64,000 nt of DNA from positions 39,149 through 103,148 of the IMG/VR virus record IMGVR_UViG_3300031414_000012, one strand, 5' to 3'. The DNA comes from a virus. Under the pieces are notes generated by a model. It made no database searches. It saw only the letters and a list, made by a program, of their open reading frames with translations, and was not told where the DNA came from. Of the stretch, positions 36,296-63,294 are shown in pieces. The translations under genes were made by a program, and so were the position numbers. Position 1 is the first letter of the stretch; each line of letters opens with the position of its first letter.

Positions 36296-36856
36296 TTATC
36301 GTACGTCGCTCGGCACAAAGCCAAGAATACGTGTGTTAGTCAATTCATCGGTGATGGGCTTATCAATCACGTCATCTAACGTGAAACCCGTTAAGTCGGT
36401 ATGTGTGATTACCGTACTAATATCGCCTTTACCCAACTTGACTTTAGCAGTAGCACTACCAAAGACTAAGGGGTGTTTATGGAAATCAAAAACAACAATA
36501 GCGTTTTCTTCTGAAAGGATCACCCGGCTTGCGATGACGATCTCTTCAGGTGAACACGGGATGTTGTACGTGGCTAACAGAGTATTACAGATAGAGCCAA
36601 CCACAGTATTCAGGTTGTACGCCGAGGTCTCGATGACGCTGTTGTCGCCCAATTGCCTGGAATCCAAACGATTATACGACGTCGTGGTAGACCTGTCGTA
36701 TTGTTTATCCTCCGGGTTAGCAAAGACTTCGATCCATGTGTTATACCGCCTGTCACCTGAAATGTTAGGCGAGCCAAATGACACACGACTTTTGTCTATG
36801 CGCATGTGGTTATTGCGATTTAACATTTCCACTAAACGTATTTCAGATGGTTTCAT
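36296..36856 (-). CDS. Paralog-array virion protein with two C-terminal peptide motifs
   Basis: LVEMLNRNN...NT...YNRLD; tail ISTVITHTDLTGF / ITDELTNTRILGF. Confidence 0.7.
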   Translation of the reverse strand: MKPSEIRLVEMLNRNNHMRIDKSRVSFGSPNISGDRRYNTWIEVFANPEDKQYDRSTTTSYNRLDSRQLGDNSVIETSAYNLNTVVGSICNTLLATYNIPCSPEEIVIASRVILSEENAIVVFDFHKHPLVFGSATAKVKLGKGDISTVITHTDLTGFTLDDVIDKPITDELTNTRILGFVPSDVR

Positions 36857-37334: not shown

Positions 37335-37883
37335 TTAGCCATTGTCTTCAAGTTCAGACTGGTCTTCTTTAAAGCCATCAAGACGAACAATAGTAATCAC
37401 ATCGGGAAGAGGGATTTTCTCATTCATCACGGTAACGGTTAATTGACCATGCAGCACGTAGTTAGGACTCAGATCGATGGTGAGTGTACCAATGATAGCG
37501 TCATCGATAGTACCGGTTTTATCATAGTTCCAGCTACCGATTTCGCCCTCAGCTGAAAGCGGCAGACTCCATTTGGAACTGAGTTCAGCCAGTACCCCAG
37601 CTAACACAGTTTCACCAGATACCTCCACATCGCCGTGTAGGGTGTAGTGGTAGTCAGTGATACCAAATGCGTCGGATGTGCTCAGGCGGTTATATTCGAT
37701 GTCGACATAACCACGATAGCCTTTACCCGCGATTGCGGTGAACCGTGCCTTCGAGTTAGTTCCTGTTCCAACGAAATCGGACGGCGCTCCAACAGTGATG
37801 ACTTTCAGGGTAAAGGCTTTCTTATTTTCGGCATTTACCAGATCGACAAGTGCCTGCTTTGTTGAAGTTACGTTAAGTGCCAT
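37335..37883 (-). CDS. Paralog-array virion protein
   Basis: STKQALVDLVNAEN...GYVDIEYNRL; C-terminal LPDVITIVRLDGF. Confidence 0.75.
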   Translation of the reverse strand: MALNVTSTKQALVDLVNAENKKAFTLKVITVGAPSDFVGTGTNSKARFTAIAGKGYRGYVDIEYNRLSTSDAFGITDYHYTLHGDVEVSGETVLAGVLAELSSKWSLPLSAEGEIGSWNYDKTGTIDDAIIGTLTIDLSPNYVLHGQLTVTVMNEKIPLPDVITIVRLDGFKEDQSELEDNG

Positions 37884-37893
37884 TTACGATTCC

Positions 37894-38856
37894 TTAGGTA
37901 GTAGTCTTCTTCGATGTCACTGTGATGCCACCGGCACTACGAAGAATATAGTTATCGACAATCGATACGCTGGCTGTAAAGTTGTCACCATTATTCGACT
38001 GACTACGCACCTTAAGCTCAGATGCCAAAACAGGCACACCATAAAGCTGTGTTAAAATACCGGCCATATACGCTGGAGTGACTCCATTGTAGAAAGCGGT
38101 GAAGGATGCAAAGTCTTCGAGTTCTACACCATTGGGCGAAAGATCTTCAATATTTAAACGATCATAATTGAAGGACGTTTTATCGCCGTATCCGCCAGAT
38201 TCGAGGCCAGTGATGGTCACGCTGTCGTGAGGGGTAGGTGCACCTGCAATGGCAGATGGCTTCGAGAAGGAAACATCACTGAACGTGAGTGTAGTACTGT
38301 TAACCTGGTTTATTAAAGCAAGGAGTGTTTCTGCTGAAGTTGACGCAGAACTTTTATCCTCACTAGTAAAGTGATCGCTAGTCGACGTTTGTTTGATAAT
38401 TGTCCCGATGGCAATTAATTCTTTTAGTGTGATGTCGACTGCGTTTCTTAGGACGTGGTGTGTATTAAAAACAACCCGAACAACACCATCGTTTCGTGTA
38501 GCGGTATAGGTGCCCGCATCCATCGGCATGCCCCACACATTCTTGATGTGCGTAAGTACCGTACTGATGATATTGCTGTTGCTGTTATTGGCTAACACTA
38601 CACCGACGGTTGGTGTCTCACCAAAGGCAGTCTCAGCATCAAGTCGATGGTAGCCAATATCAACATAGTCACTACCGTCATCCACGACAGTTAACCGGAC
38701 CACGCTATTTGTGGTAGACATCTTAGCCACAAAGTCGCTTGCTGATACATCAGTAGGTGCCGCAACCGATACGTCTGACAAAGTAAGCGACAAGCCATTA
38801 GACTCATTGATTAAGTCTAACAAACTCTGCTTGGCAGTACTCGCTAGATTATACAT
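37894..38856 (-). CDS. Paralog-array protein with a tandem-duplicated domain
   Basis: AKQSLLDLINESN...YHRLD and AETLLALINQVN...YDRLN. Confidence 0.75.
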   Translation of the reverse strand: MYNLASTAKQSLLDLINESNGLSLTLSDVSVAAPTDVSASDFVAKMSTTNSVVRLTVVDDGSDYVDIGYHRLDAETAFGETPTVGVVLANNSNSNIISTVLTHIKNVWGMPMDAGTYTATRNDGVVRVVFNTHHVLRNAVDITLKELIAIGTIIKQTSTSDHFTSEDKSSASTSAETLLALINQVNSTTLTFSDVSFSKPSAIAGAPTPHDSVTITGLESGGYGDKTSFNYDRLNIEDLSPNGVELEDFASFTAFYNGVTPAYMAGILTQLYGVPVLASELKVRSQSNNGDNFTASVSIVDNYILRSAGGITVTSKKTTT

Positions 38857-38881
38857 GAAGTACCTCATACGAAATAAAAAG

Positions 38882-38909
38882 AAACGTAGCCCCATGAGAG
38901 GCTACGTTT
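38882..38909 (-). terminator. Terminator after the 38932-39498 gene
   Basis: AAACGTAGCC...GGCTACGTTT with T-run on the minus strand. Confidence 0.7.
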
Positions 38910-38931: not shown

Positions 38932-39498
38932 TTAGCCCTGCTGAGCCGGTTTAACGTCGTCGTTGCTAAAGCCAGACAGTTCAGTGGTCTTCACCTGATC
39001 GTCCAGAGTAGCAGCGGCAATGCCAACGGTCAGCGGCAGTGTATCACCCAGCACGTAGTGTTTGCTGAAGTCTACAGTTACTTTCCACGGATAGTCCGCG
39101 TTGTAATCTGCATCGCCTTCAGCCATTTGCGAAACGTTGATCTCGTACGATCCGTCTTCCAGTGGAACGGACTTAATGCCGTCTTCGATCAGACCACTTT
39201 TAACTGCGGCGGCTACGCCTTCCACAGTGGCGGAAGTTCCCGCTGGTGCGCGCCAGCTTGACAGTGCCAGGAGCACTTTAACTGACGGACGGGTATAGGT
39301 AACAGTAACCGAACCAGGCAGTTTGTCTGCATCGGCACCAGTTACCGCGACAGTGGTATTCAGTGCATCGGTAGCGCCTTTGCCATTTGCCGTGGCAGGA
39401 GCAGCCAGAACGAGATCGGAGAGTTTGAAAGTGGTGTTGTTGTCTTTGTTGATGAGATCAACAAGGGCCTGTTTGCTGCTACTAGCAGTAATCGCCAT
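38932..39498 (-). CDS. Paralog-array protein, probable high-copy fibre subunit
   Basis: SSKQALVDLINKDN...GSVTVTYTR; C-terminal LDDQVKTTELSGF; GAGGA RBS, own TATG and terminator; MCP-like codon bias judged by eye. Confidence 0.75.
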   Translation of the reverse strand: MAITASSSKQALVDLINKDNNTTFKLSDLVLAAPATANGKGATDALNTTVAVTGADADKLPGSVTVTYTRPSVKVLLALSSWRAPAGTSATVEGVAAAVKSGLIEDGIKSVPLEDGSYEINVSQMAEGDADYNADYPWKVTVDFSKHYVLGDTLPLTVGIAAATLDDQVKTTELSGFSNDDVKPAQQG

Positions 39499-39557
39499 TT
39501 CTATATCCTCTAATTTACCATGACAACATGTACATGGTGCATCAAGCATAAAATAGG

Positions 39558-42500: not shown

Positions 42501-42581
42501 GGCAGTGGCGGGTAACGCATAGAGACGCCTTAGTGATGCAGCTACCGCGCCTTTACCATCGTCATCGAGGTTATTAAGCAT
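39558..42581 (-). CDS. Giant LRR (BspA/DUF285-like) virion protein
   Basis: Many ~25-aa repeats FxxCxxLxxIPxxLF after a divergent array-type N-terminal domain. Confidence 0.8.
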   Translation of the reverse strand: MLNNLDDDGKGAVAASLRRLYALPATADNIDVVGGASEMTISPVADGVPLMGTAAVTSTYQHVSLSDISSKWGNPRIPARVYPDFSTFAADFHTYNAIVVTDSDFDLTFPLDLSEAENGSTIDLVAKTTSVRFSGSTKATVFLPPSARLRFSVKATAKPANTGFYLGYVRSTVTPTPSIFDVKINGTVAKVSFLQWVVGLWIVVVNLPEALVAGETEITVTSSIPFGTGVMRTTTTSEPTLTNGLDFPILTIYEVTQDGIVDGTLGFINPTQNNDAIWIEADAFQKNRVPIDISGLFANANVLEITDGLFDNQTIVGANRAFQSSRVNTVRAGAFAKAKLSGDWSHAFRQSQLGQIEEGAFPETSEITNLFGFCYNCASLMDIGVDVIRHAGKTCSDMTGVFYGCGQLTAIPTGLLKGCSGVANLSSAFGSSGLVSLPEGLLDDCVNLTNGHGIFGSSKLQSIPEYLFKHNTALTDLSNSFNGTAIAEIPERLFASLTKLTTLSYGFMYCNSLTTIPSKLLENCTALTDLSYCFYGTRNVSPFPIGILKGLVSLTNINSAFELCGSSYRYSNPVTFTSDFMADLGNLKTAVRAFLGCPFGTIEEGALDSLTKVTALDYFFGGPSWSPAGGQFTTVPGNLLSKCASVVSLSGFFASTGLTSIPANFFTNLPKKASVKSLASLFYGCVNLKELPAGLFDGYTGVTDISNIFYGLTQLTDIPDGLLLPMSSSVTTVEGAFSKTAITKLRNSYLGQFNALVTLTGLCSGCLSLTEVESGALGPSTKVTNISDMFLNCSSLAVVPDEPLVLGSVISYAQNTFAGCAALTTIYGSWFSVPTALYRVDSMFRRSGVTKVPAGLFSNKEQLGSLTYVFSEARNLSLVEAGWFTTPTKSGTVDFTCAFEMVADDIVFEQASIPLTKSSTITGMLGTYILSSGGGYVGIAGSINRLEGVFTIPSGEKPSQYSNLMATRNNTPNNKLTGTAKTLLTSIGLDQSDMSTVFRGNPNITWE

Positions 42582-42590
42582 GGATAATCC

Positions 42591-45263
42591 TTAGGATGTA
42601 AGTGAGCAAAGTAAGTATGTGTCTGGACTATTCCAATCGGCGGTGGTGATTGACCGGTCGAACACCAGACATGCTACCAAACGAACCTCTGGTCTGACGT
42701 ACGCTGTTGGGAAACCAATAGAGCCATACGCCCTCGACATTAAGCTAACTGTCTTAACGGTGGTAGGCAGTGTAAGACCCAACGTAAGAAAAACTCTAGA
42801 CAACCAGACCCGCATAGCGCCCGTTATCTCAACGTTGTCCAATGTGCCGAAACTGTTGGAGAGCGTATCGCGAGGTATATTAACATAGTAACTCGCAAAC
42901 AACGGTACAACGGCGTGTCCGGCCGGCTTGGTGGTTTTATCCATGGTAAAGACATCCAGTGCGTTGCCATCCGCACGGCTCAAATTGATAGCGGTTGTCC
43001 ACCACGGGCTTTTGACGGCCTCGTAGTCATCAAGCAGAAAACACTGCTCGACGAAATTGAGACGTATTCGGTTGGCATTAGGTACAACCGAGTTGGTCAT
43101 CGCGTTCCACAGTTCCATACAACTGCCGGTTAACCAAATAACCCCGTTACAGAAGTTAGACGCATCAAACTTTTGTCCAGCCTGGTTAGTCATCCCAATG
43201 ACAATCTTCTTCAGCAAGGCTGTGGTACTTACTACCAATTTTCCCGCGTTAAGTAAGAAACCATTTATCGAGAACACCATTCCATTAATTTGCACTGCGT
43301 TATCTTCAATTGTTAACAAGTTGGGACAGTTAGCAAAGAAGTTAACAAACGAACCGCCGCCGTCCGTAATCCCAGTAGTAACGTCTATCGCACCCTTAGA
43401 CACCTTGACTAATCTAGAACAGCCGGAGAAAACGCCGTCTGCTTTAATGAGCGTAGCGTTGAGTGTAATAAATACGTTTGCTGGAACTGAGTCAATGGCC
43501 GTACCTGCAAAGGCATACTCGATGGCACGAAGTGTGGTGTGTGATGAAAATAAACCCGCTTCGATTGAAACCAACCCAGAGTTCTGAAAAACCCCACTGG
43601 CGTCCCTAATACCAGCCCCTGGAAAGAAATCGCCAGGTATAGCAAAAGGTTGCGTAACGCCCCGGAATGCCTGGGCGACGTTAGTTAATTTGGTGGTGTA
43701 TTTAAAAAGGTCTGACGGAATTGACGTCAGTGAAATGCAACCATCAAAGATGTTATTAACTACGCTAAGCGACGCACTATTAATAAAAAGCGCTTCCGGG
43801 ATAGAAGATAGCGCCGTGTTGTTAGCCATCAGGGAATCGGCATAGACTATTTTAGAGTTAGCATCGAAGAACCCACTAGGGATGGAGGCGATTGAGGTTC
43901 GCATGAACAACTCTCTAACCTGAATCAAGCTGGGGTTGTTCGACAAAAAGTCTGCGGCAATGTCGGTGACGCTCACACAACCTTTGAAGACCCCATTTGC
44001 CACAGTTAGTTGCGAAAGATCCTTAAAGAAACCATCTGGAATAACCTTTAACTTAGTGCAGCCGTAGAACACATTGGTGAGTGTCGTCAGACCGGGGGAG
44101 TCGTTTAGCAGGTTGGTGGGTACTGTCTCGACATTAAGGCACGACATAAACATCGAAGATAACGTTTTGAGGCTTGGGAACGCAGCAAGTAATTTTTCTG
44201 GTATAACACTCACCCCTGAGTTCTGGAATAGCTGAGTTGAGCTGATGACGTTTGCACCAATTGGTGTAAATAGATCGGCTGGTATTTCCCTAAGGGACAG
44301 CGTGTCCATAAAAACCATGTCTAGCGTGGTGTCCTGCAAATCCAAATTCTTAAACAGTGTAGAGCTTACACTTTCTATCCCGGTGGCGCGCAGCAGCCCA
44401 CTAATGCGGTACACCGAACTATCGCGCATAAATAACACGCTTGGGAGTGTCTTAAGTCCGCTACAGCCCCAAAACAGATTAGATATGTTGGTGCTTAACC
44501 CGCCAGCTGCGTGAATACACTCCTCATCGATTGTAGTTAAATTCACACAATCTTTAAAGAGCTGGGTGTACGTACCGCTATACACACGCAATAACCGGAG
44601 ACGCGTTGGGCCAAGAAACTTAAACCCGTTCGAAACCAGACCAAAGTTCTTGATCTCGATCTTGTGATTACCCGCTATGATCGTATATGGTAAAGGCTGG
44701 TACACCCCATCAACATAAAGAGAACCATACCCGATAACTGCCGGCGTTACCGACACATTACCGGGTAGAGAAACATCCATTACTACCTGGTTAATCCACG
44801 GGTGGGTTAGCGTTACACGCAAGGTACCATAATAGTAGAAGCTAGTCGACTTAGCCGTAAGCTCCACAGTGACATCGTAACGCGGGTCTGGCGTGATGAG
44901 CACCGCTTCGAAATCATCAGTCGACAATGAAACACCCAGGTACTCCGACAGCATGGAGAGCAACTCAGCTTGACCAGATGGTGTTTTGTCGTGTAGTAAT
45001 ACATCGGCATTGAAGACTTTGATGTCATTCTGCCAATCGAAGACGTAGGTTTTGTTAGAGAGGTCCATGCGGTCAATATTGAACGTACTGGAACCTTTCA
45101 TCTTGTCCGAACCCTGGGACGATGGTTTGATCGTTACCTGAATAGTTTTACCGGAGACCACCTTCTGGTCGGAGAGGACAAAGTCCTCCCATACCAGTTC
45201 AAGGCCAGTCTTCGCCATTAACTGATTCACGATGTTTTGTTTGTAATCATCGTAATTCATCAC
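42591..45263 (-). CDS. Giant LRR (BspA/DUF285-like) virion protein
   Basis: KQNIVNQL...FNIDRMDLS N-terminal domain; repeats such as FYGCTKLKVIPDGFF and FDGCISLTSIPSDLF. Confidence 0.8.
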   Translation of the reverse strand: MMNYDDYKQNIVNQLMAKTGLELVWEDFVLSDQKVVSGKTIQVTIKPSSQGSDKMKGSSTFNIDRMDLSNKTYVFDWQNDIKVFNADVLLHDKTPSGQAELLSMLSEYLGVSLSTDDFEAVLITPDPRYDVTVELTAKSTSFYYYGTLRVTLTHPWINQVVMDVSLPGNVSVTPAVIGYGSLYVDGVYQPLPYTIIAGNHKIEIKNFGLVSNGFKFLGPTRLRLLRVYSGTYTQLFKDCVNLTTIDEECIHAAGGLSTNISNLFWGCSGLKTLPSVLFMRDSSVYRISGLLRATGIESVSSTLFKNLDLQDTTLDMVFMDTLSLREIPADLFTPIGANVISSTQLFQNSGVSVIPEKLLAAFPSLKTLSSMFMSCLNVETVPTNLLNDSPGLTTLTNVFYGCTKLKVIPDGFFKDLSQLTVANGVFKGCVSVTDIAADFLSNNPSLIQVRELFMRTSIASIPSGFFDANSKIVYADSLMANNTALSSIPEALFINSASLSVVNNIFDGCISLTSIPSDLFKYTTKLTNVAQAFRGVTQPFAIPGDFFPGAGIRDASGVFQNSGLVSIEAGLFSSHTTLRAIEYAFAGTAIDSVPANVFITLNATLIKADGVFSGCSRLVKVSKGAIDVTTGITDGGGSFVNFFANCPNLLTIEDNAVQINGMVFSINGFLLNAGKLVVSTTALLKKIVIGMTNQAGQKFDASNFCNGVIWLTGSCMELWNAMTNSVVPNANRIRLNFVEQCFLLDDYEAVKSPWWTTAINLSRADGNALDVFTMDKTTKPAGHAVVPLFASYYVNIPRDTLSNSFGTLDNVEITGAMRVWLSRVFLTLGLTLPTTVKTVSLMSRAYGSIGFPTAYVRPEVRLVACLVFDRSITTADWNSPDTYLLCSLTS

Positions 45264-45271
45264 GAAGTTCC

Positions 45272-46066
45272 TTAGTCGTTAAAGTGCGCCCATATATTTA
45301 ACTTAGGCACGATAAGCAGGCTACTGAAACCAGCCCTACCGCCTGCCGTTTTCACGTTTGCCTCGCCAGTGTAAAGTACACCGGTAATGCCAGACGCCCA
45401 CTGGTTTGTTCTACCACCCATCAAGGCGTTCCAGAGGTTCTGTCTCAGCAACGGAGTGGACGCAGCCACACCCTGACGTAACAGTGAGCCACACCCGGTG
45501 TAATCGTAGTTATATGTCAGTGTAAAGTTAGAGTCCACCTTAGGCAACTCAGTGTACGCACCGGAGTTCCAACCGGGTTCGATAATGTCACCAAGGTCAG
45601 GTTTACCGCGCGTGAAGTAGACATGGCACTTACCAGTAATCCACGGTGAGTCCTCTTCAGCTTCTATCTCGATGTAGCTGTTGTTAGAAGACGTTGGGAT
45701 ACTTGCGGCCTTGATATCACTTGCTTCCATCGGGATGCCAAATTCATTGCTGACCCATGCTGCGAAGTCTTTGGTATTGTTGCTGGAGGTTAACCAAACG
45801 ACATCAACGCCCTTAAACAGCAGACTTAAATCAAGTCGGTTATAAAAGACGTCGACATATTTACCGTAAGACTCGCCGAATGAGTTCTGTATACCAGTAG
45901 CAACAAGTGTCGCCTGGGTGTTCGACTTCTCCGCACCAGTAACACCCGAGATTGCTCTCGGGTTAGTCACGTTGTACATCTTATCAGTCAGTTCGAAAGG
46001 CAAGCTATTGACGGCGTTGATGGCGCTAGTCAGAGTTGCCTTGAACCCTTTGCTATAAAACGACAT
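45272..46066 (-). CDS. Paralog-array virion protein
   Basis: TLTSAINAVN...NTQATL...VFYNRLDL; C-terminal YNYDYT domain. Confidence 0.75.
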   Translation of the reverse strand: MSFYSKGFKATLTSAINAVNSLPFELTDKMYNVTNPRAISGVTGAEKSNTQATLVATGIQNSFGESYGKYVDVFYNRLDLSLLFKGVDVVWLTSSNNTKDFAAWVSNEFGIPMEASDIKAASIPTSSNNSYIEIEAEEDSPWITGKCHVYFTRGKPDLGDIIEPGWNSGAYTELPKVDSNFTLTYNYDYTGCGSLLRQGVAASTPLLRQNLWNALMGGRTNQWASGITGVLYTGEANVKTAGGRAGFSSLLIVPKLNIWAHFND

Positions 46067-46075
46067 AGCTTATCC

Positions 46076-48751
46076 TCAAGTGAGATTTTTAGCACCATTG
46101 AGTGCGTTGGAAACAACCGTGGCATTGACCTGACTTGCATCACTCACGCCCCACAATGCCTTCACCAGCGCGTCCTTGCTACCAGTCAACCAGGTGGCAT
46201 TGAGTAAGAACAGGTTTGTGTTTGTAGTGCTATCGGAGAGAGGGATCTTGTTACCATCAGTCACCCCAATGGTCAAAAGGAACTGATCGACCGTCAGATC
46301 GGCTAACTTAGTGTTGCCGAACATTGTCGAAATCGTACCCGTCAGAGGTATGTTCGCCTTTACTTGACCGATGTTCAGGTTAGACAGTGTCAAGTTATAG
46401 AACAACCCACCGACGTTCGGTTTGTTCTTATAGACCTCGGGATGAAACATGTCCGTTACATCACCACGCAACTCAGCTCGTTCAAACAGACTATAAGCTA
46501 AACTCAACGACGCCATCTTACTAAACAGACCTTTTGGTATCGTCAGTGCCAGAGAGTACCGGAAGAGATACGTGATGTCCGTCACACTAACCAGTGGATC
46601 AAACAAACCCTCTGGGATGACAAATTGCTTCTTCAGGTTGCTGAACATTTCCCTGGCCGACGTCACAGCACCGAATGGGGCGAATATGCCGCTAGGTAAA
46701 GTGGTAAGATTTCGAGCACCGAAGAACATTGTTGCGATGTTTGTGCATTTGGTCATTCGCTGGAATATTTTCTCAGGGAACTCCGTAGCCGCCGTATTTT
46801 CAAACAAGCGGTTAGCGCTGGTGACGTTATCGGCATATTCCAGTAAGTCCTCAGGGAACGTGGATGCACCACAAGAACCAAACATGTCATACAGCACTTT
46901 CGCGCTTTTGGCTTTAGGTAAGACACTACCTTTAAATTCAATGTTTGATGTGCTGACAAATACGTTACTGAAATCGCTGACCAAACTCTGGTTAGCAAAG
47001 ATTCCGGCTGGGATGGACAATGGATTATTCACTCCGCTTGCACCACGGAAACACATTACTAGGTTAGTAACGTTCGTCAGCGTGTCGAAAAGTCCAGGTG
47101 GGCAATACCCATTGCGGAACTTTGCTCCGTAGAATAGCTGCCCTATGTTAGTTACGCCTGTCAGGTCTTTAAAGAGATCTGCGTTCCCATCTGTAAGTTG
47201 GAATGTGGCATTGTAGAAAGCATTGTAGAGTGAGGTTAACTTACTCTGCCCAGCAAACAGGTTAGAGAAATCGCCGACAACGGTAGTGTCACTAAAGAGC
47301 GAACTAGCGTCAGACAACAACGCACCCGAAAATACATCCTTATCGATCGATTGGATAACTGCTTTACTGAGCATGCTCGATACAGATACGGTTGCACCAT
47401 TAGGTAAGATGCCTTTCCCGACCGAGTCGACCTTAACGCCCTGACACGCGTTAGTTAGGGTTAGGTTATTAGAAAAACCAGCAAACGCACCATCCTCAAT
47501 ATTAGGGATATTCGAATATGCGAGAACAGAAAGCGCGTTCGTCACCGACGGGTGTCTCTTAAAGAGACGACTCGGCCAATAGCTAGCTTTAACATAGCTA
47601 AACATAGTCCCCACTTGCTGAAGACTCGTCATGTCATCCAGTAAGCCGTCGGGGAGATGGCAACCATTCGTAGTCGAGTAACCAACCATATTAAACGCAG
47701 CAGTCGCTACGGCTACATTCTTCATCCCTTTAAACAGACCCAATGGGATGTTAGTTAGTTTGGAACAACCGTCAAAGAGTCCTTGGATCGTCGAGGTTGA
47801 GTGTTCAGTAACTTGACTCTCTGTCTCACCAAAATCCGTTAGGTTAGTGCATTGGGAAAACGTACGATCTAACGAAGAAAACCCGCCAGCGTGATTGGCG
47901 AACCCGGTGCCCACAGTGGTGAGATTACGACATTGGAAGAACATCGTGGCGGCATTAATCGGCTGCGTGTTACCAAGGAACACGTCGTCGCCAATTTCAA
48001 TCAAGCTGCTGTTATACATGAACAGCGAGCCTGAAACCACCCTTGACCCATATCCCACAACACGATCAATCCGAACGATTGGTAGACTCGTGCCCACCGT
48101 ACCCAGTGAAGGGGTGGCGTAGTAAAAATCCCACACGCCAGTTTCGACTGTTACAGTAAAGTAACCCTTCTCGTCGATAGGGTGGAGGACGCCATTTATT
48201 ACCAAATAGGCATATGCACTATCGGGGAATATGGCTGATGACGTTGCGCCGTATACGCGATAACGTGCTCCCTTGGTGACTGATACCGTACCGCGTAGCA
48301 TATACGCACTGCGGCTCTTCAAAGTAAACGTGAGTTGTCCTTTGTATTTCGGTGAGTCGTTTGCACACTTGAGTACAAAGGTCTCCCCATGATCACCTTT
48401 AAGATCAATCTGCTGGTCAACGATGTCACTCGTCTCCAGATTCAACTTACAATTGCGGTTTATCTCTTCTAAGGCGTCGGATACCTTAGCCAGCGGGCGC
48501 GCTGGTAAGACGGCGGATAACACACCCACCAAGCTAGAAAGCTCTACGCGATTGTAGTTAAAGTCGGCCTGACCTTCCACGGTATTTCCACTTATGTTTG
48601 TGGCCTTCCCACGAACTTGTGAATTACGTGTGGCACTTGCACTCGACTGCACATCACTAAATTCGATCTGTGCAGGTACAATGCGAGTACCATTTACATC
48701 GTTGATGGCATCAACAAATGCCTGCTTTGTTACTGAATCGCGTAGGCTCAT
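46076..48751 (-). CDS. Giant LRR (BspA/DUF285-like) virion protein
   Basis: TKQAFVDAINDVN...FNYNRVEL N-terminal domain; repeats such as FDGCSKLTNIPLGLF and FFGARNLTTLPSGIF. Confidence 0.8.
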   Translation of the reverse strand: MSLRDSVTKQAFVDAINDVNGTRIVPAQIEFSDVQSSASATRNSQVRGKATNISGNTVEGQADFNYNRVELSSLVGVLSAVLPARPLAKVSDALEEINRNCKLNLETSDIVDQQIDLKGDHGETFVLKCANDSPKYKGQLTFTLKSRSAYMLRGTVSVTKGARYRVYGATSSAIFPDSAYAYLVINGVLHPIDEKGYFTVTVETGVWDFYYATPSLGTVGTSLPIVRIDRVVGYGSRVVSGSLFMYNSSLIEIGDDVFLGNTQPINAATMFFQCRNLTTVGTGFANHAGGFSSLDRTFSQCTNLTDFGETESQVTEHSTSTIQGLFDGCSKLTNIPLGLFKGMKNVAVATAAFNMVGYSTTNGCHLPDGLLDDMTSLQQVGTMFSYVKASYWPSRLFKRHPSVTNALSVLAYSNIPNIEDGAFAGFSNNLTLTNACQGVKVDSVGKGILPNGATVSVSSMLSKAVIQSIDKDVFSGALLSDASSLFSDTTVVGDFSNLFAGQSKLTSLYNAFYNATFQLTDGNADLFKDLTGVTNIGQLFYGAKFRNGYCPPGLFDTLTNVTNLVMCFRGASGVNNPLSIPAGIFANQSLVSDFSNVFVSTSNIEFKGSVLPKAKSAKVLYDMFGSCGASTFPEDLLEYADNVTSANRLFENTAATEFPEKIFQRMTKCTNIATMFFGARNLTTLPSGIFAPFGAVTSAREMFSNLKKQFVIPEGLFDPLVSVTDITYLFRYSLALTIPKGLFSKMASLSLAYSLFERAELRGDVTDMFHPEVYKNKPNVGGLFYNLTLSNLNIGQVKANIPLTGTISTMFGNTKLADLTVDQFLLTIGVTDGNKIPLSDSTTNTNLFLLNATWLTGSKDALVKALWGVSDASQVNATVVSNALNGAKNLT

Positions 48752-50462: not shown

Positions 50463-52736
50463 TCAGCGAACATCTTTCGGTCTAAAACCGATAAGACTCT
50501 TAGTGGTGACCTCGTCAGAAATTTCTTTCTCACTCAGATCTCCCAGTCCGTTCAAATCGTTCGTGGTCAGCGTCTTGCCGTTTTCGTTGGTGTAGGTCCA
50601 ATCAAGTAAACCATTAAGATCGGTATTACCCAACACAGCGTCCAACTCAACCATCTTCGCCCTGCGGATATAAACCGTAGGGATTTGTCCGCGTATGCGA
50701 ATCTCGCCACGTCCGGTCAAGTTGAAGTCGAGATCAACACTATCCTTTATAGCAGCGTTAGACTGAACTTCGGCAGACCATTGCGTGCCCTGCTCGGTGA
50801 GGCCGTAGTCTATCGCCGCTTCAGATTTCACACCCCAGTTCTTAACGTGTGCTGGCATCCATGGGTGTCGGATATTACCATAGCCGTAAAGTCCAATATC
50901 ACCCAAACGTATAACACGCCAGTCTGCCACAATGGCAGGGTTCTGGTTGATTGTTTGAATAGCATGGATGGTGTATGAACTTAACTGAAGGAACAGACGC
51001 AGCATTGCGGCGTGTATCTCAGCCAGTGACTTACTATAGAACAAGTCACTTCCCGTTGCCTGGGTAAAGATAGCTGTAGCCAACTGCATGTACGTATCTG
51101 CATCCCAACCATCTAACTCCCAGTTACGCTCACGGAAGTAGTCGCTCAACAACGTACCTTTCGGTGCGAAATAGCAGCGTTTAGTTTGGAACAACTTACG
51201 ACAGACAGCTTCCATCTGACCACGAGCACGGTAGTGTTCACGGAGTGAGTAAAGTTCACGGTGCGCTAGTTGCGTTTCACGAATCTCTACGCATTTCAAA
51301 TAGAACCCTTCCGTCGATACCAGCTTTGGTAACGCTGGCATTGCACGCATGGCAACTGTAATCAGGTCATCACTGACAAGATACGGCTCAGCTACACCAC
51401 GGAGTTCGTCAAACGTCGGACGATCTAAGCGGACCACGTCCCATGCCTCTGGAATAGGCACTTGCGTTAAGGTTACGCCGAATGCTCTATTCAGACAGTA
51501 GTTGAAAGCAACCCATGCGTCTTTAACAGACATAACCATGTTCAATCCAGAACGCGGATTTTGTACGGTTATCATCGAGGTGAAGACGCCTTCACTACCA
51601 AACAGTATCCAATGGTTATAGAGCGTATCCACCAAACGTACCGGTGTCAGCAATGAAATATCAACAACCTCGGACTCAAGGACTTTGGTTGGAATCTCGC
51701 CCATCAACCCGCGACTAAACTTGAAGTTGATATCGGCATCTGCCGTTTCAAGGTTGTCCGTGTTGTCTCGTGCTAATGGTTGCTCTTTTTCAAGGATTTC
51801 ACGAACTGTTTTGTTGTCGTGACGAATCTCCTGCTCCTGTTGGAAGTTCAACGGTGTGAAGGAAAGACTGGCACGGTTATAAAGCGTTGTCAGCAAGTCT
51901 TCGTCACTAGCCACCATGTTATACTGACCAATCGGGAATCCACGTTTTGTCATGACGTTTTTGATAAGGACGGTTTTGGTTTCGTCTTTACCGTTGTTAT
52001 GATCAATCCAACGAATATCACGATATAACCACATAGCTTGTTCGCGAGTCAGGAACTCACGGTAATCATCTAAATAGTTATGAGAAGCCAGGTAAGCCCA
52101 AAGGTGAAAACTATGGACGTAGTTGGTCCTACAGTTCCTTTGGCGTATTTCCATGATGGCACTAGGAATTGCAAAATGCAACTGTCGAAGTGCTGATGCC
52201 AGATACAGATCTTCTACCAGCGAGAAGTCGTTATGCAAATAACGTCTCACGAAGGAATCAATGAATTTCTGTAACTCTGGGATTAAGTTCTCTTCCCACG
52301 GCTCAACGAGGTCGTCGTCGTAATAAAGGATGCTGTGATCTGGGGCACTAATTGCCGTCTGTAAATCAACAGGCGTGATAATGCCGCGAATCAGAGCACG
52401 CTGCTCGGGATATCGTCTGACCAGTTCCTTATAGTAGCTACTGCCCAGGGTGTATTCACGCGCCGTGGTACTGTGCTTCAATAAGTTTTCTTTGGTGAAG
52501 TCAATCTCTTCTAACGTATCCAAAGAACGAACTGTCATCATTGTGTTCTCAGGATGATACTCACCTGCAAGGTTGAGGTAATACATCCAGGACTCGGGGC
52601 GTGTCGTATCGACATCACGCCGATATTCCATCAGTCCTCTATTTAGTGCCTCTGCCGAACCTGCGGACTTAATGACCAGCGTCTTACCCAGCTGGAGCGT
52701 ATTAGCCCGATAGATATCGTATAAGTTACTGGACAT
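50463..52736 (-). CDS. Conserved virion/baseplate protein (phiKZ gp128-like) with repeated C-terminal peptide motif
   Basis: WMYYLNLAGEYH, SLDTLEEIDFTKENL; tail LDAVLGNTDLNGL / TTNDLNGL / ISDEVTTKSLIGF. Confidence 0.7.
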   Translation of the reverse strand: MSSNLYDIYRANTLQLGKTLVIKSAGSAEALNRGLMEYRRDVDTTRPESWMYYLNLAGEYHPENTMMTVRSLDTLEEIDFTKENLLKHSTTAREYTLGSSYYKELVRRYPEQRALIRGIITPVDLQTAISAPDHSILYYDDDLVEPWEENLIPELQKFIDSFVRRYLHNDFSLVEDLYLASALRQLHFAIPSAIMEIRQRNCRTNYVHSFHLWAYLASHNYLDDYREFLTREQAMWLYRDIRWIDHNNGKDETKTVLIKNVMTKRGFPIGQYNMVASDEDLLTTLYNRASLSFTPLNFQQEQEIRHDNKTVREILEKEQPLARDNTDNLETADADINFKFSRGLMGEIPTKVLESEVVDISLLTPVRLVDTLYNHWILFGSEGVFTSMITVQNPRSGLNMVMSVKDAWVAFNYCLNRAFGVTLTQVPIPEAWDVVRLDRPTFDELRGVAEPYLVSDDLITVAMRAMPALPKLVSTEGFYLKCVEIRETQLAHRELYSLREHYRARGQMEAVCRKLFQTKRCYFAPKGTLLSDYFRERNWELDGWDADTYMQLATAIFTQATGSDLFYSKSLAEIHAAMLRLFLQLSSYTIHAIQTINQNPAIVADWRVIRLGDIGLYGYGNIRHPWMPAHVKNWGVKSEAAIDYGLTEQGTQWSAEVQSNAAIKDSVDLDFNLTGRGEIRIRGQIPTVYIRRAKMVELDAVLGNTDLNGLLDWTYTNENGKTLTTNDLNGLGDLSEKEISDEVTTKSLIGFRPKDVR

Positions 52737-60713: not shown

Positions 60714-60749
60714 TCGACTTGGATCGGAGTAGCGGCATAAAAGGAAGAA

Positions 60750-60775
60750 GGACTACTCCCCGAAGGGAGTAGCCC
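60750..60775 (-). terminator. MCP transcript terminator
   Basis: GGGCTACTCCC-TTCG-GGGAGTAGTCC-TTCTTCCTTTTATGCCG. Confidence 0.85.
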
Positions 60776-60779
60776 GTCT

Positions 60780-60914
60780 CTGTCTGACCAAGGATCGCTT
60801 GGTGTTTCCAAGAACCACTAAGTAAACCGTCTGGTCAGCAGCTGTTGACCGTCATCAGTTTACCTGTTCCGGGGTGAACCCCGTTAACTTAGTATTCTGG
60901 ATGACATCAGACAG
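60780..60914 (-). other. Structured RNA element 3' of the MCP UGA (candidate readthrough stimulator)
   Basis: Nested stems CUGUCUGA/UCAGACAG and ACUAAGU/ACUUAGU; hairpins CGGGG/CCCCG, GGUCA/UGACC, CCAAG/CUUGG. Confidence 0.6.
60855..60914 (-). CDS. Putative readthrough extension of the MCP (LSDVIQNTKLTGFTPEQVN)
   Basis: In frame after UGA-C, closed by TGA TGA; matches the array C-terminal motif. Confidence 0.65.
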   Translation of the reverse strand: MSDVIQNTKLTGFTPEQVN

Positions 60915-63209
60915 TCACTCGCCAGTAGCGCCGCCGTTTCCGCCTTCGCTGCCGCCGTTACCACCAGTACCGCCTTCGCTACCGCCATTGCCACCGGTGC
61001 CACCTTCGCTGGTGTCTTTCACAGCTTTGCTGTTGACGTCCAGCTGAGTGCGGGTCGCAGTTGCGATATCCAGGTTCTTAACTTCGATCATGCCCATGAT
61101 AGGCAGGTTGGTGATCTGAAGGTTACGCATCTGGATCATGGTCTCGCGGTTGATCGCGCCGTGACGCGGAACCGGTACCACAGAAGACAGCTCTGGGATG
61201 TAGATGTGTGAACCGAAGCTCAGCGCATCTGGCTCAGAGGTGTTCTTACGAACGAACGCCAGTACGATTTTGCCAACCATACGTTTGTCCGGAGACGCAA
61301 CGATGGTGTGGTCCATACCGATGCTCAGGGTGCGAGTATCGCCAGTTACCATCAGGAACTGCTGGGTAACGATGTCGGTACCTACAACCAGGTGTGGACG
61401 CTCAGAGCGGCCTTCAGCATCAGCATCCAGCGCAGCCTGGTAGTTAGAGTCACGCACCAGCTCGTAAGCCATGTTGCGGATCGGAGTTACCAGAGCACCC
61501 TGGATATCTTCAGCGCGCTGTGCAGACTGAACAGAGTTGACTTCTTTCGCCAGATCGATTTCCAGGTACTTGAAGGTAGGCTCTACCAGCAGACGGCCGA
61601 CACCAGGAACGGTGGTCAGTGAAGATTTGAAGAAGCTGGTCTGAGTTGCGGCTTTCAGATCGTCAGCGTAGTTCAGCAGCAGGGTAACTGCGTTGTTGTT
61701 GGTACGGATGTTCGCAGAGTTGATCAGCGCTTGCAGATCTTTAGCGGACTTATCAGTCGCCAGCGGAGCAACGGTGCTCAGCGGTGAGCTGATTGGAACG
61801 GTGTAACGCTCTGCGTATTCGGTTACGTCAACCAGCAGACCCTGGGTACGACGGTTGGCGTTGTTACGACGACCAAACAGTTCGAAACCGAACGGAGCCA
61901 GTTTCAGTGCATCGATGATCGCTTTAGCAGATGCGTCGTTCAGAGAAACAGGTTCGTTCTGCTCGTCGAATACTGCTTTAACTTCCAGGCCGGTAGCGTT
62001 CAGGTTGATGTTGCCGTACTCGACAGACATGCGACCTACAACGTCAACTGCAACGCGCAGTTTCAGACCATTCAGGTTAGCCAGTTCCGGCGCAACCACA
62101 CCAGCGGTGTTTTTGGTTTCGGCGGTCAGCAGCAGATCCTGAGTAGTGAACTGGAAGTTCATCTCACGGCTATCGCCTTCTACCGATTTAACAGCACCGG
62201 CACGAGGTGAGCGACGCACGTTGAATGCAACGACAGAGTCGCCAACAGACAGATAGATGTTGTCCAGACGAGCGTACGCATCGATTGCGTCGGTGTTGTC
62301 AACAACGCCAGCTTTCAGCAGCTGATCAGTCTGAGACACGCCCAGCAGGTCGATGGTTTTGCCGAATTTCAGCGGTGCAGTTTCAACATCATAGCCGTCA
62401 ACCGGCACGGTGCGCACTGGCACTTTGGTAACGTCAACGAAGTTGTCTTTGCTTTCTTCACGGTAAACCGGAACCAGCAGAGTCGATTCGTTAGACAGGA
62501 TGTTGTGGTCGCGGAACGCTTCCAGCAGGTTCACTTTTTCCAGATCCATCGGCTTGCCGGTGACTGGGTGCAGTTTACGGTTCAGAACCATGTTACGGCG
62601 GACGCGAACGTCGGTACCGATCTGCTCAGGTGAAACTACGTAGGTAGGGAAGAACGCTTCTGCGAAGTCAGCCTGACGCGCAGTTGCAGCAGCGAATACG
62701 GTAGAGAATGCGATGTGCTTACGCAGTTCGTTCTCGTCGTATGACTCCAGACCGAATGCGGCATTTTCCAGGTACTGCATGTCGCCATGCGCGCCTTCAG
62801 CGATCGCGTTGACTTTACGGCCCTGAGAAGAATCTTTGAAATCTTCAACAGAGGCAGCCAGGCCGCGCTGTAAGTAACCAACCGGGTCACCAGCGGCCAT
62901 CATCACGATGGAAGCAGCTTCTTTAGAAGCATTGGTACGACGCTCGTCCAGGTAGCCCAGACCAGAATCGTTGTTAGATGCGCCAGACAGGCCCATGTGG
63001 TCGAACATGCTTTCCAGGGACTGAGTTGCACCACCGGCAACGTCACGGACTTCGGCCAGTTCGGCGTCAGACAGTGATTCCAGTGACGCTACGCGATCAG
63101 CCAGTTGTTTGCTGAATACGCCGACGCTTTGTTTGGTGATGTGGCTGTTAACCGCGCTCACTGCCTCAGACAGATTGCTGCGAGTTTTGGTATCAAAGAG
63201 CTTACCCAT
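60915..63209 (-). CDS. Major capsid protein (phiKZ gp120-like)
   Basis: 764 aa; strong codon bias; propeptide with SLE/S, SVE/D and GLE/S protease sites; AARQADFAEAFFPT-type motif; Gly-rich tail. Confidence 0.88.
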   Translation of the reverse strand: MGKLFDTKTRSNLSEAVSAVNSHITKQSVGVFSKQLADRVASLESLSDAELAEVRDVAGGATQSLESMFDHMGLSGASNNDSGLGYLDERRTNASKEAASIVMMAAGDPVGYLQRGLAASVEDFKDSSQGRKVNAIAEGAHGDMQYLENAAFGLESYDENELRKHIAFSTVFAAATARQADFAEAFFPTYVVSPEQIGTDVRVRRNMVLNRKLHPVTGKPMDLEKVNLLEAFRDHNILSNESTLLVPVYREESKDNFVDVTKVPVRTVPVDGYDVETAPLKFGKTIDLLGVSQTDQLLKAGVVDNTDAIDAYARLDNIYLSVGDSVVAFNVRRSPRAGAVKSVEGDSREMNFQFTTQDLLLTAETKNTAGVVAPELANLNGLKLRVAVDVVGRMSVEYGNINLNATGLEVKAVFDEQNEPVSLNDASAKAIIDALKLAPFGFELFGRRNNANRRTQGLLVDVTEYAERYTVPISSPLSTVAPLATDKSAKDLQALINSANIRTNNNAVTLLLNYADDLKAATQTSFFKSSLTTVPGVGRLLVEPTFKYLEIDLAKEVNSVQSAQRAEDIQGALVTPIRNMAYELVRDSNYQAALDADAEGRSERPHLVVGTDIVTQQFLMVTGDTRTLSIGMDHTIVASPDKRMVGKIVLAFVRKNTSEPDALSFGSHIYIPELSSVVPVPRHGAINRETMIQMRNLQITNLPIMGMIEVKNLDIATATRTQLDVNSKAVKDTSEGGTGGNGGSEGGTGGNGGSEGGNGGATGE

Positions 63210-63294
63210 TATTTATATCCTTCAACGTTGAAGATTAAGCAGTGACAGTGTATATACAGTAATGCATAGTATTACAATATATAAAGTCAGTTTC

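Follow-up and report, generated by a model that had tools for sequence, protein, structure and literature searches.

The window, that is, the whole stretch of DNA analyzed here (64,000 nucleotides), derives from a jumbo phage of the phiKZ-like, nucleus-forming kind (a chimallivirus); of its complete relatives, an Erwinia phage is the nearest. On its minus strand, the gene for the major capsid protein ends in a low-complexity spacer and a TGA stop codon, behind which the same frame stays open for a short distance:

60915..63209, minus strand: major capsid protein gene, HK97 fold, chimallivirus type (764 aa, TGA stop included)
About 60918..61019, minus strand: Gly/Asn/Ser/Glu-rich low-complexity C-terminal spacer, read from the translation and present on every capsid subunit
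60915..60917, minus strand: candidate leaky stop UGA, with C as the next base (60914)
60858..60914, minus strand: 19-codon in-frame extension, assigned from profile score and selection as a putative copy of the DUF7941 tail/linker motif, core Leu-x-Gly-Phe
60852..60857, minus strand: two tandem TGA codons closing the extension, from the sequence

The capsid protein matches 218 phage records, nearly all of them phiKZ-like jumbo phages, and its sequence matches in the PDB are the capsids of phiKZ (gp120), Goslar, and PhiKp24 (E 1e-82 to 1e-100, residues 42-730). Its homologs carry PF25620, and the protein is of the Chimalliviridae type (phiKZ gp120, Goslar gp41). The spacer lies outside the region aligned to the solved capsid structures and is hypervariable in length and composition among relatives that are 50-92% identical (P0001-P0012), as expected for a flexible tether. 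Prohead-protease sites (Ser/Ala/Gly-x-Glu) were considered as a reason for conservation of the spacer and rejected, since the spacer of pEa_SNUABM_54 lacks any Glu. An earlier note on this DNA had described the Gly-rich spacer, the TGA-C, the open frame behind it, and the double TGA; all of these are present at this locus on the minus strand, the open frame comprising exactly 19 codons with no in-frame ATG, GTG, or TTG. The tandem TGA also follows the extension in the metagenome contig Ga0308168_1000897.

The peptide encoded behind the capsid stop had been likened to the C-terminal motifs of four other proteins of the window, and these motifs are present as they had been quoted:

36296..36856, minus strand: short DUF7941 paralog of 186 aa, an N-domain and a tail with two tandem motif copies (36299-36424); PF25613, phrog_1037
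37335..37883, minus strand: short DUF7941 paralog of 182 aa with one terminal motif copy (37347-37412); PF25613, phrog_1037, motif profile
38932..39549, minus strand: short DUF7941 paralog of 205 aa with one terminal motif copy (38944-39009); PF25613, phrog_1037, motif profile
50463..52736, minus strand: baseplate wedge homolog (phiKZ gp128) with an added C-terminal tail ending in the motif (50466-50525), from a PDB match

When a motif profile was built only from the five non-capsid copies, with the capsid extension left out, the extension scored 28.0 bits (independent E 3e-7) and the runner-up among the 3,798 six-frame peptides of the 103-kb contig scored 7.2 bits, so that the scoring suggested in the earlier note bears out the likeness, to an extent well above chance. 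Smith-Waterman comparison of the extension with all six-frame peptides of the contig likewise returned the tails of those four proteins as the best four matches, the closest being the first motif copy of the 186-aa paralog (10/19 identity). Between the extension and the paralog tails, 7-10 of the 19 residues are identical and only 23-31 of the 57 bases, and the identical residues mostly differ in codon; the resemblance therefore appears to be one of protein and not of DNA. Recent gene conversion from the paralog tails into the capsid flank was rejected on the same grounds, as stretches with 37-62% identical residues share only 40-57% of their bases. In an AF2 model of the 186-aa paralog, the N-domain (residues 1-141) has a pLDDT of 77-92 and the tail (residues 142-186) one of 42-54, and the motif-bearing tail is thus predicted to be disordered, the modeled segment being the tail of the paralog and not the capsid extension itself.

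The polypeptide that would carry the capsid extension has no DUF7941 N-domain. The motif follows the capsid protein, and therefore a read-through product would carry the motif only and would not be a DUF7941 family member. The gp128-like protein is comparable in this respect: its PDB match (E 7e-114) covers residues 5-625 only, and the motif sits at the extreme C-terminus. Since the motif also occurs on this homolog of phiKZ gp128, the wedge subunit in the phiKZ atlas (PMC13250141), it behaves as a portable handle.

Two close relatives were compared with the window at the DNA level: pEa_SNUABM_54 (complete, 272 kb), whose capsid protein is 82% identical to that of the window, and Ga0308168_1000897. 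In both, the TGA-C, the reading frame, and the length of 19 codons are all kept; loss of the extension, a varying stop, or a sense codon in its place, which the earlier note had named as outcomes that would speak against translation, did not appear. Between the window and pEa_SNUABM_54, 23 of the 57 bases of the extension differ and 11 of the 19 residues are kept, with eight synonymous codon changes and no new stop. This retention of residues was rare in a neutral simulation (P about 5e-4), and none of the other five frames of the region is conserved between the two sequences. The substitution pattern is typical of a translated peptide and points to purifying selection on the extension. As a control, we looked among 78 orthologous gene pairs for the same pattern (both stops TGA, equal open length, and high residue with low base identity), and the capsid gene alone shows it; conserved non-coding DNA does occur after other genes in this comparison. 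A 26-residue motif-like peptide of pEa_SNUABM_54 (179677-179754) was dismissed as chance, its frame being full of stops.

The pattern extends well beyond the close relatives. Among the capsid genes sampled, 15 of 32 are followed by a tail-like in-frame extension, those of phiKZ and Goslar included. All 15 of these genes stop at TGA, and 16 of the 17 without an extension stop at TAA or TAG (Fisher P 6e-8 for the association, uncorrected for phylogeny); TGA ends only 15-25% of the long ORFs in these genomes. Translation of the 3′ flanks in related jumbo phages had been proposed as a check, and 13 more distant chimalliviruses do pair the TGA with a peptide like their own DUF7941 tails. The best genome-wide six-frame match of the Goslar extension is the C-terminal tail of gp23 (score 55, 99.9th percentile 33), that of the phiKZ/fnug extension is the tail of gp143 (63, 99.9th percentile 32), and that of the PhiEaH1 extension is the tail of a DUF7941 protein 202 aa long (40, 99.9th percentile 29); for PCH45 and pEa_SNUABM_54, DUF7941 tails rank second or third genome-wide. 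The extension thus appears, as judged from these matches, to co-vary with each phage's own DUF7941 tails, and the likeness is again one of protein rather than DNA. The indels that separate phiKZ from PhiPA3, and PCH45 from SPLA10, preserve the reading frame, and the motif profile matches only frame 0 downstream of the capsid stops, this being the zero frame in every lineage. The extension itself ends at TGA in five lineages, with TAA, TAG, or TGA-T among the others. The distant matches of FLC9, Moabite, and RP12 are individually weak, and an apparent TGA inside a DUF7941 gene of FLC9 was set aside as a match that simply extended past the ordinary stop.

In E. coli, termination at UGA-C is weak, and the earlier note had laid stress on this context. 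The notion of a weak stop holds insofar as UGA is common to all 15 extension lineages. The C, however, is not required: the next base is C in six, A in six, G in three, and T in none, and the emphasis on UGA-C was therefore too narrow. The feature common to the relatives is a UGA that is never followed by T, TGA-T being the commonest TGA context (36%).

Two further features lie beyond the extension on the capsid transcript:

60785..60805, minus strand: conserved palindromic element between extension and terminator, untranslated, recognized from relatives
60740..60775, minus strand: intrinsic terminator of the capsid transcript, 11-pair hairpin and T tract, from a terminator scan

About 20 bases of the palindromic element are identical in pEa_SNUABM_54 despite an overall identity of 81%, and the element is present in the close sequence L070 too; where the terminator lies, pEa_SNUABM_54 also forms a hairpin, though one with another sequence. 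In the three close sequences, hairpins begin at the UGA or immediately behind it (z = -3.4 in the window, -3.1 in L070, and -1.7 in the third), with differing shapes and weak RNAalifold covariation among the three, and no convincing conserved structure that might stimulate read-through was found among them. No Rfam match, selenocysteine-insertion elements included, was found in the region, and a small hairpin within the extension does not recur in pEa_SNUABM_54; selenocysteine recoding was rejected on these two counts. Genome-wide reassignment of TGA by a phage suppressor tRNA was rejected likewise, as the 103-kb contig and the 272-kb relative yielded no tRNA genes and TGA ends both ordinary long ORFs and the extension. 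A programmed frameshift of the T7 10B type was also rejected, since the motif lies in the zero frame behind the stop in every lineage and frameshifting is not needed to reach it.

Sequence comparison thus supports what the motif is, that it is conserved, that the peptide is under selection, and that it goes with TGA. With fair confidence, we propose that low-level read-through of the UGA provides a capsid-borne docking handle that anchors DUF7941 filaments on the head, and the earlier note's interpretation, in which a minority of capsomers carry a tethered motif that recruits the paralog-array proteins, is on this evidence supported overall. A weak UGA with a conserved copy of a docking peptide in frame behind it suggests that occasional read-through probably yields a few filament-anchoring capsid subunits. 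Most ribosomes would stop at the UGA and release the normal 764-aa subunit with its flexible Gly-rich spacer. A small fraction would insert an amino acid at the UGA, presumably Trp via a host near-cognate tRNA, continue for a further 19 codons, and terminate at the tandem TGA, thereby adding what appears to be a copy of the short disordered DUF7941 tail. A minority of subunits would then display the handle at the tip of the spacer, near the center of the capsomer, where it could seed or anchor DUF7941 filaments on the head; the motif on the gp128-like wedge protein may anchor such filaments at the baseplate likewise. In this scheme, four things are inferred: the route (read-through), the proportion of long to short form, the exposure at the outer surface, and the binding.

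The proposed docking follows from what has been described for the DUF7941 proteins of Goslar, which consist of an N-domain, a linker that is disordered, and a C-domain and of which gp22 forms filaments seen by EM (bioRxiv 10.64898/2026.04.21.720040). In AlphaFold 3 predictions for the Goslar proteins, the tail or linker is docked on the N-domain of the next protomer, giving head-to-tail filaments (bioRxiv 10.64898/2026.04.21.720040). This predicted docking of the linker fits the idea of a docking peptide, and the capsid extension may be expected to bind a DUF7941 N-domain on the strength of those models and of motif homology. The same preprint reports about 2,140 copies of gp23 and 580 of gp22 per Goslar virion and places the proteins at the peripheral baseplate, calculating filaments of roughly 3 microns under the assumption of six anchor sites (bioRxiv 10.64898/2026.04.21.720040). 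As for the capsid, its C-terminal arm lies at the hexon's center and in pentons contacts gp244 atop the capsomer, and the phiKZ model stops with residue 747, the last one annotated (PMC11297242). Read-through is unmentioned in the phiKZ atlas (PMC13250141) and in the Goslar preprint (bioRxiv 10.64898/2026.04.21.720040), the latter mentioning neither the capsid gene nor capsid anchoring, and no earlier report of a leaky stop in a capsid gene of this arrangement was found in the literature searched.

Several other explanations could account for the extension. Read-through may be real and serve another job, such as nucleating or capping DUF7941 polymers in the cytoplasm or, during assembly, tethering capsids to tails or to adjacent virions (as in the late "bouquets" of chimalliviruses), or the extended subunit may face the inside of the capsid. 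The evidence for translation and selection applies equally to such roles, outward head fibers are not described in the papers on the phiKZ and Goslar capsid structures, and the preprint locates DUF7941 at the baseplate (bioRxiv 10.64898/2026.04.21.720040). We nevertheless regard these roles as unlikely, because a surface anchor best fits the long flexible spacer before the stop, the contact of the penton C-arm with an outer decoration protein, and the presence of the same motif on a baseplate wedge protein, and because six baseplate sites could hardly accommodate the roughly 2,500 DUF7941 copies of a Goslar virion. It is very unlikely, in turn, that the 19 codons are untranslated, whether because they are a remnant of a DUF7941 gene's 3′ end (which might have been copied along with its terminator) or because they form a DNA or RNA element with only the look of coding sequence. 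The region is rich in RNA structure (the z values of the window and L070), a terminator lies downstream, and conserved non-coding DNA exists after other genes, all of which such an origin would accommodate; the RNA folds, however, differ between relatives, synonymous changes dominate the conserved half of the peptide while the other frames are not conserved, and the resemblance to the paralog tails is at the protein level. Frame, length, and TGA are, moreover, kept in the close relatives, as are the zero frame and the TGA in 15 diverged lineages.

That the peptide is under selection is not in itself proof that it is fused to the capsid protein. A free 19-residue micropeptide made by re-initiation after the UGA could act as a soluble competitor or regulator of DUF7941 polymerization, and in some lineages the extension does contain an in-frame TTG, GTG, or ATG. 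This is nonetheless highly improbable: six of the 15 extensions (those of the window, L070, pEa_SNUABM_54, FLC1-1B, RP12, and Moabite) have no canonical in-frame start, the existing starts often lie past the beginning of the motif, and re-initiation does not explain why the stop is strictly TGA or why TGA-T does not occur. Stop recoding by phage suppressor tRNAs occurs in other large phages, and with this precedent one might suppose that the UGA is decoded efficiently late in infection, through altered termination, a suppressor tRNA, or selenocysteine, such that most or all subunits carry the handle. We find this scarcely credible, given that searches found no tRNA genes in the contig and the 272-kb relative and no Rfam match in the region, and given the use of TGA to end 15-25% of ordinary genes and, in five lineages, the extension itself, and a phiKZ model that stops at annotated residue 747.

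Low-level read-through toward a capsid-borne handle has partial parallels in known systems. In Qbeta, the UGA of the coat gene is sometimes read through by a host tRNA, and the few extended A1 subunits thus placed in the capsid function in interaction with the host. The likeness lies in a UGA that ends a coat gene and in minor C-terminally extended subunits, the long form being here proposed from sequence. In contrast, Qbeta is a small ssRNA levivirus with a folded extension of about 200 residues, whereas chimalliviruses are dsDNA jumbo phages with a T=27-type capsid and a linear motif of 15-55 residues that would copy the docking peptide of another protein family. A minor extended form of the major capsid protein is also displayed on the heads of T7 (gp10B) and the Listeria phages PSA and A118 through recoding at the 3′ end of the gene; there, however, the device is a -1 or +1 frameshift at slippery sites, whereas here the extension lies in the zero frame behind a stop. 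The extension shares its short disordered motif with the DUF7941 proteins themselves (Goslar gp22/gp23, phiKZ gp126/gp127/gp143), in which the motif lies at the end of the short members and between the two domains of the long members, but on the capsid it would come without a DUF7941 domain and be gated by a stop codon. The gp128-like wedge protein (50463-52736) offers a further comparison, as a non-DUF7941 structural protein whose C-terminal tail ends in the motif, although there the motif is constitutive on every copy, whereas on the capsid it would be conditional on read-through.

Programmed read-through is textbook knowledge for Qbeta but, as far as we are aware, has scarcely been described for tailed dsDNA phages, whose recoding usually proceeds by frameshifting. 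Whether the capsid read-through is an ancient recoding conserved across much of the Chimalliviridae, phiKZ and Goslar included, that makes anchors of a small, tunable share of capsid subunits, with the head as well as the baseplate carrying a cloud of host-searching fibers whose density is set by the leakiness of the UGA, we judge to be evenly balanced. If this proposal is right, an additional capsid isoform, as yet unannotated, would exist in the most-studied jumbo phages and would have escaped decades of proteomics as well as the recent near-atomic structures; neither icosahedral averaging nor standard search databases would reveal it. The capsid would also be physically linked to the DUF7941 filament proteins, which are very abundant and whose location the 2026 Goslar preprint leaves open, and the presence of about 2,500 DUF7941 copies on a single Goslar virion would be accounted for. 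The context of the stop codon would serve as a simple evolutionary dial for the number of host-searching fibers. In practical terms, display on the heads of jumbo phages could make use of the locus as a naturally permissive site and of its docking peptide, and annotation pipelines should check structural genes for conserved zero-frame extensions behind TGA.

About half of the lineages (16/32) are without the extension, yet DUF7941 genes are present where this was checked, and the handle is therefore not universally required. The marine relatives among the viral-contig matches, which also included one truncated close relative, are without it as well. In RTH11, LucasX, and Deimos-Minion, a linker-like motif lies before a TAA stop as a candidate constitutive fusion, and in RTH11 the match of this motif within its own genome is weakly above background (37, 99.9th percentile 31).

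The window carries a major capsid protein gene of the chimallivirus (phiKZ-like jumbo phage) type, whose 764-aa ORF matched the capsid proteins of known structure from Goslar, phiKZ, and PhiKp24 with E values of 1e-82 to 1e-100. Matches to this protein were found in 218 phage records, nearly all of them phiKZ-like, and the nearest complete genome is that of Erwinia phage pEa_SNUABM_54 (identity of 82% for the protein and 81% for the DNA). The capsid C-terminus is a Gly/Asn/Ser-rich low-complexity spacer followed by TGA with C as the next base; the frame then stays open for 19 codons (the extension) and is closed by two adjacent TGA codons, with an intrinsic terminator ~80 nt beyond. The earlier note had described this end of the gene and quoted similar C-terminal motifs from four other proteins, and all of these are present in the sequence as it stated. 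The features concerned are:

60915-63209, minus strand: major capsid protein gene (764-aa ORF)
60858-60914, minus strand: extension, 19 codons in frame after the capsid TGA
36296-36856: short DUF7941 protein (186 aa)
37335-37883: short DUF7941 protein
38932-39549: short DUF7941 protein
50463-52736, minus strand: homologue of phiKZ gp128 (757 aa)

A profile trained only on the five non-capsid motif copies was searched against every stop-to-stop peptide from the six frames of the 103-kb contig holding the window. The training copies scored 30-32 bits and the capsid extension 28.0 bits, with the next peptide at 7.2 bits. When the extension was compared with every six-frame peptide of the contig by Smith-Waterman alignment, ranks 1-4 were the tails of the same four proteins. 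Extension and tails match in 7-10 of 19 residues and 23-31 of 57 bases, the shared residues being encoded mostly by different codons; since the likeness therefore lies at the protein level, a DNA repeat and recent gene conversion were both ruled out as its source.

In pEa_SNUABM_54, too, the capsid gene closes with TGA-C, and precisely 19 in-frame codons precede the next stop; a closely related soil metagenome contig (Ga0308168_1000897) has this arrangement as well, including the tandem TGA. Between the window and pEa_SNUABM_54, 11 of the 19 residues are the same despite differences at 23 of 57 bases. Eight extension codons carry synonymous changes, seven of them within a nine-codon core with a single residue change, and random substitution at equal density gave such identity without a new stop in ~5 of 10,000 trials. 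None of the other five frames of the region is conserved. As a control, the 19 codons past the stop were compared in every one of the 78 pairs of orthologous genes that the two genomes share. Most pairs had 0-4 residues in common; high base identity, or a stop in one of the two partners, marks the few high-scoring ones as pointing to DNA-level elements. TGA in both genomes, the same open length, and high residue but low base identity came together in the capsid gene alone.

Of 32 chimallivirus lineages whose capsid 3' ends were read, 15 have an in-frame post-stop peptide resembling DUF7941 tails. Extensions with a hydrophobic-x-Gly-Phe core occur in the window group, FLC9, FLC1-1B, RP12, Moabite, PhiEaH1, PCH45, SPLA10, and Goslar, and extensions with Arg-Tyr-Leu-Glu-Asp/Asn-Gly-type repeats in phiKZ, PhiPA3, Psa21, and Noxifer. 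The capsid stop is TGA in all 15 extension-bearing lineages and TAA or TAG in 16 of the 17 lacking an extension (Fisher P = 6e-8 before any correction for shared ancestry), against a background in which TGA ends 15-25% of long ORFs. This TGA is followed by C or A in six lineages each, by G in three, and never by T; TGA-T is the commonest TGA context in these genomes (36%). Of the five extensions that themselves end in TGA, four have a doubled stop or one with T after it.

The extension also tracks each phage's own DUF7941 tails, judging from unbiased searches of it against the six-frame peptides of the respective genome. The top match was the C-terminus of gp23 in Goslar (score 55 against a 99.9th percentile of 33; gp23 identity confirmed by annotation), the C-terminus of gp143 in phiKZ strain fnug (63 versus 32), and the tail of a 202-aa DUF7941 protein in PhiEaH1. 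DUF7941 tails ranked second or third in pEa_SNUABM_54 and PCH45, and matches in FLC9 and Moabite were weak. Again, the similarity is at the protein and not the DNA level.

Short DUF7941 members (PF25613; phrog_1037, "virion structural protein") account for three of the motif-bearing proteins; in full-length members (about 280-310 aa), the motif is internal, near residues 165-190, between two domains. DUF7941 proteins of the Goslar virion comprise an N-domain followed by a linker that is disordered and then a C-domain, and according to AlphaFold 3 predictions, one protomer's linker docks on the following protomer's N-domain; gp22, when purified, makes filaments (bioRxiv 10.64898/2026.04.21.720040). 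Each virion holds ~2,140 copies of gp23, a short form with N-domain and linker, and ~580 of gp22, from which filaments of ~3 microns were calculated on the authors' assumption of six baseplate anchor sites (bioRxiv 10.64898/2026.04.21.720040). An AlphaFold 2 model of the window's 186-aa paralogue, with pLDDT 77-92 over residues 1-141 and 42-54 over the tail (142-186), agrees with this architecture. The fourth protein is the homologue of phiKZ gp128, a baseplate wedge subunit (phiKZ atlas, PMC13250141), with an extra C-terminal tail ending in the motif. Present on DUF7941 proteins and a baseplate protein as well as past the capsid stop, the motif behaves as a portable handle.

It is very probable that the extension is translated and under selection; the substitution pattern, like the conserved frame and TGA, contradicts an untranslated relic or RNA element, which we consider improbable. 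A free micropeptide made by re-initiation seems slightly less probable still: in-frame ATG, GTG, and TTG are absent from the extension in six lineages, the window's included. Least likely is efficient decoding of the UGA through a suppressor tRNA, selenocysteine, or altered termination, as TGA serves as a real stop, no Rfam element was found, and there are no tRNA genes in the 103-kb contig or in the 272-kb relative. Without an in-frame start or a phage tRNA, read-through of the UGA by a host tRNA is the simplest route, and a likely one.

In phiKZ, the last 20 residues of the capsid protein form a six-helix bundle around the pore at the hexon center, and in pentons this arm reaches gp244, located atop the capsomer (PMC11297242). 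In Goslar, the hexon center holds a six-stranded barrel made of these arms. From this position an extension would leave the capsomer along its axis, presumably outward in hexons. The flexible spacer ahead of the stop is 30-40 residues long in the window's lineage and hypervariable (60918-61019, minus strand) among related capsid proteins that are otherwise 80-92% identical, with Gly-Asn, Asp-Asn-Gly-Gly, or Pro-Thr-Asp repeats, as expected for a tether. We propose that most ribosomes would stop at the UGA, while a minority would read through, append the 19-residue handle, and end at the tandem TGA; subunits with the handle would be built into the shell along with the others and would bind a DUF7941 protein by its N-domain, and a head-to-tail filament could grow out from that protein. 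Taken as a whole, this scheme is the reading we favor, with some reserve. As far as sequence analysis goes, the earlier note's interpretation is supported: comparative analyses bear out the identity of the motif, selection on the peptide, its tie to TGA, and co-variation, while we infer the occurrence and ratio of read-through, display on the surface, and binding. Read-through in another role, as an assembly nucleator, a capsid-tail or virion-virion tether, or at an interior location, is a less likely but appreciable alternative.

The proposed subunit would resemble in function Qbeta A1, a minor extended coat subunit made by UGA read-through, and T7 gp10B, where frameshifting yields the minor extended capsid protein; carrying only the docking motif of DUF7941, the subunit does not belong to that family. 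Read-through is not mentioned in the phiKZ atlas (PMC13250141) or the Goslar preprint (bioRxiv 10.64898/2026.04.21.720040), and full-text literature searches combining it with jumbo-phage capsid terms returned nothing relevant. Such recoding would reach widely within an intensively studied phage family, and the proposal is directly testable from existing mass-spectrometry data.

Several further observations concern the motif. The gp128-like protein has ~110 extra C-terminal residues (50463-50620, minus strand) that its solved homologues from phiKZ and Goslar lack; with two more Leu-Asn-Gly-Leu-type repeats in this stretch ahead of the terminal motif, it may bind several DUF7941 N-domains. An orthologue of the 186-aa paralogue has four tandem tail motifs rather than two, suggesting rapid evolution of copy number and, with it, of filament branching. 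A 333-aa ORF (37894-38895, minus strand) with two DUF7941 N-domain-like stretches and no terminal motif could act as an adaptor with two sockets. Three proteins of 890-1,007 aa (39558-48751, minus strand) join a DUF7941-type N-terminal module to leucine-rich repeats (LRR_5 on the 1,007-aa protein), matching the preprint's class of DUF7941 fused to host-recognition domains. In PhiEaH1 (66031-66477, plus strand) and Moabite (172524-172964, plus strand), short DUF7941 proteins end in phiKZ-type repeats (aromatic-Glu-Asp-Gly), unlike the Gly-Phe-type capsid extensions, which implies two tail flavors per genome. RTH11, LucasX, and Deimos-Minion, with TAA as capsid stop, have a linker-like Leu-x-Gly-Leu motif within the last 15 codons, so the handle may be constitutive there; the own-genome search gave weak support in RTH11.

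A stimulatory RNA structure is possible. Folding of the first 140 nt past the stop gave z scores against shuffles of -3.4 (window), -3.1 (closest relative), and -1.7 (pEa_SNUABM_54), but predicted hairpin shapes differ among the three, and the covariation signal from only three sequences is weak. In the window and its closest relative, the first extension codons pair with the tandem stop region in a long hairpin (60852-60917, minus strand; z about -3); pEa_SNUABM_54 has another, smaller hairpin that includes the UGA. Many related capsid genes encode Pro directly before the stop, and Pro at this position is known to slow termination. Between extension and terminator, a palindromic element of ~20 nt (60785-60805, minus strand), identical in pEa_SNUABM_54 and almost so in Ga0308168_1000897 amid diverged DNA, may serve the capsid transcript as a regulatory or processing site. 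The DNA upstream of the capsid gene (63210-63294, minus strand) is conserved with pEa_SNUABM_54 as well, at 39 of the 57 bases that follow the stop of the preceding gene, which would fit a late promoter or leader of this transcript.
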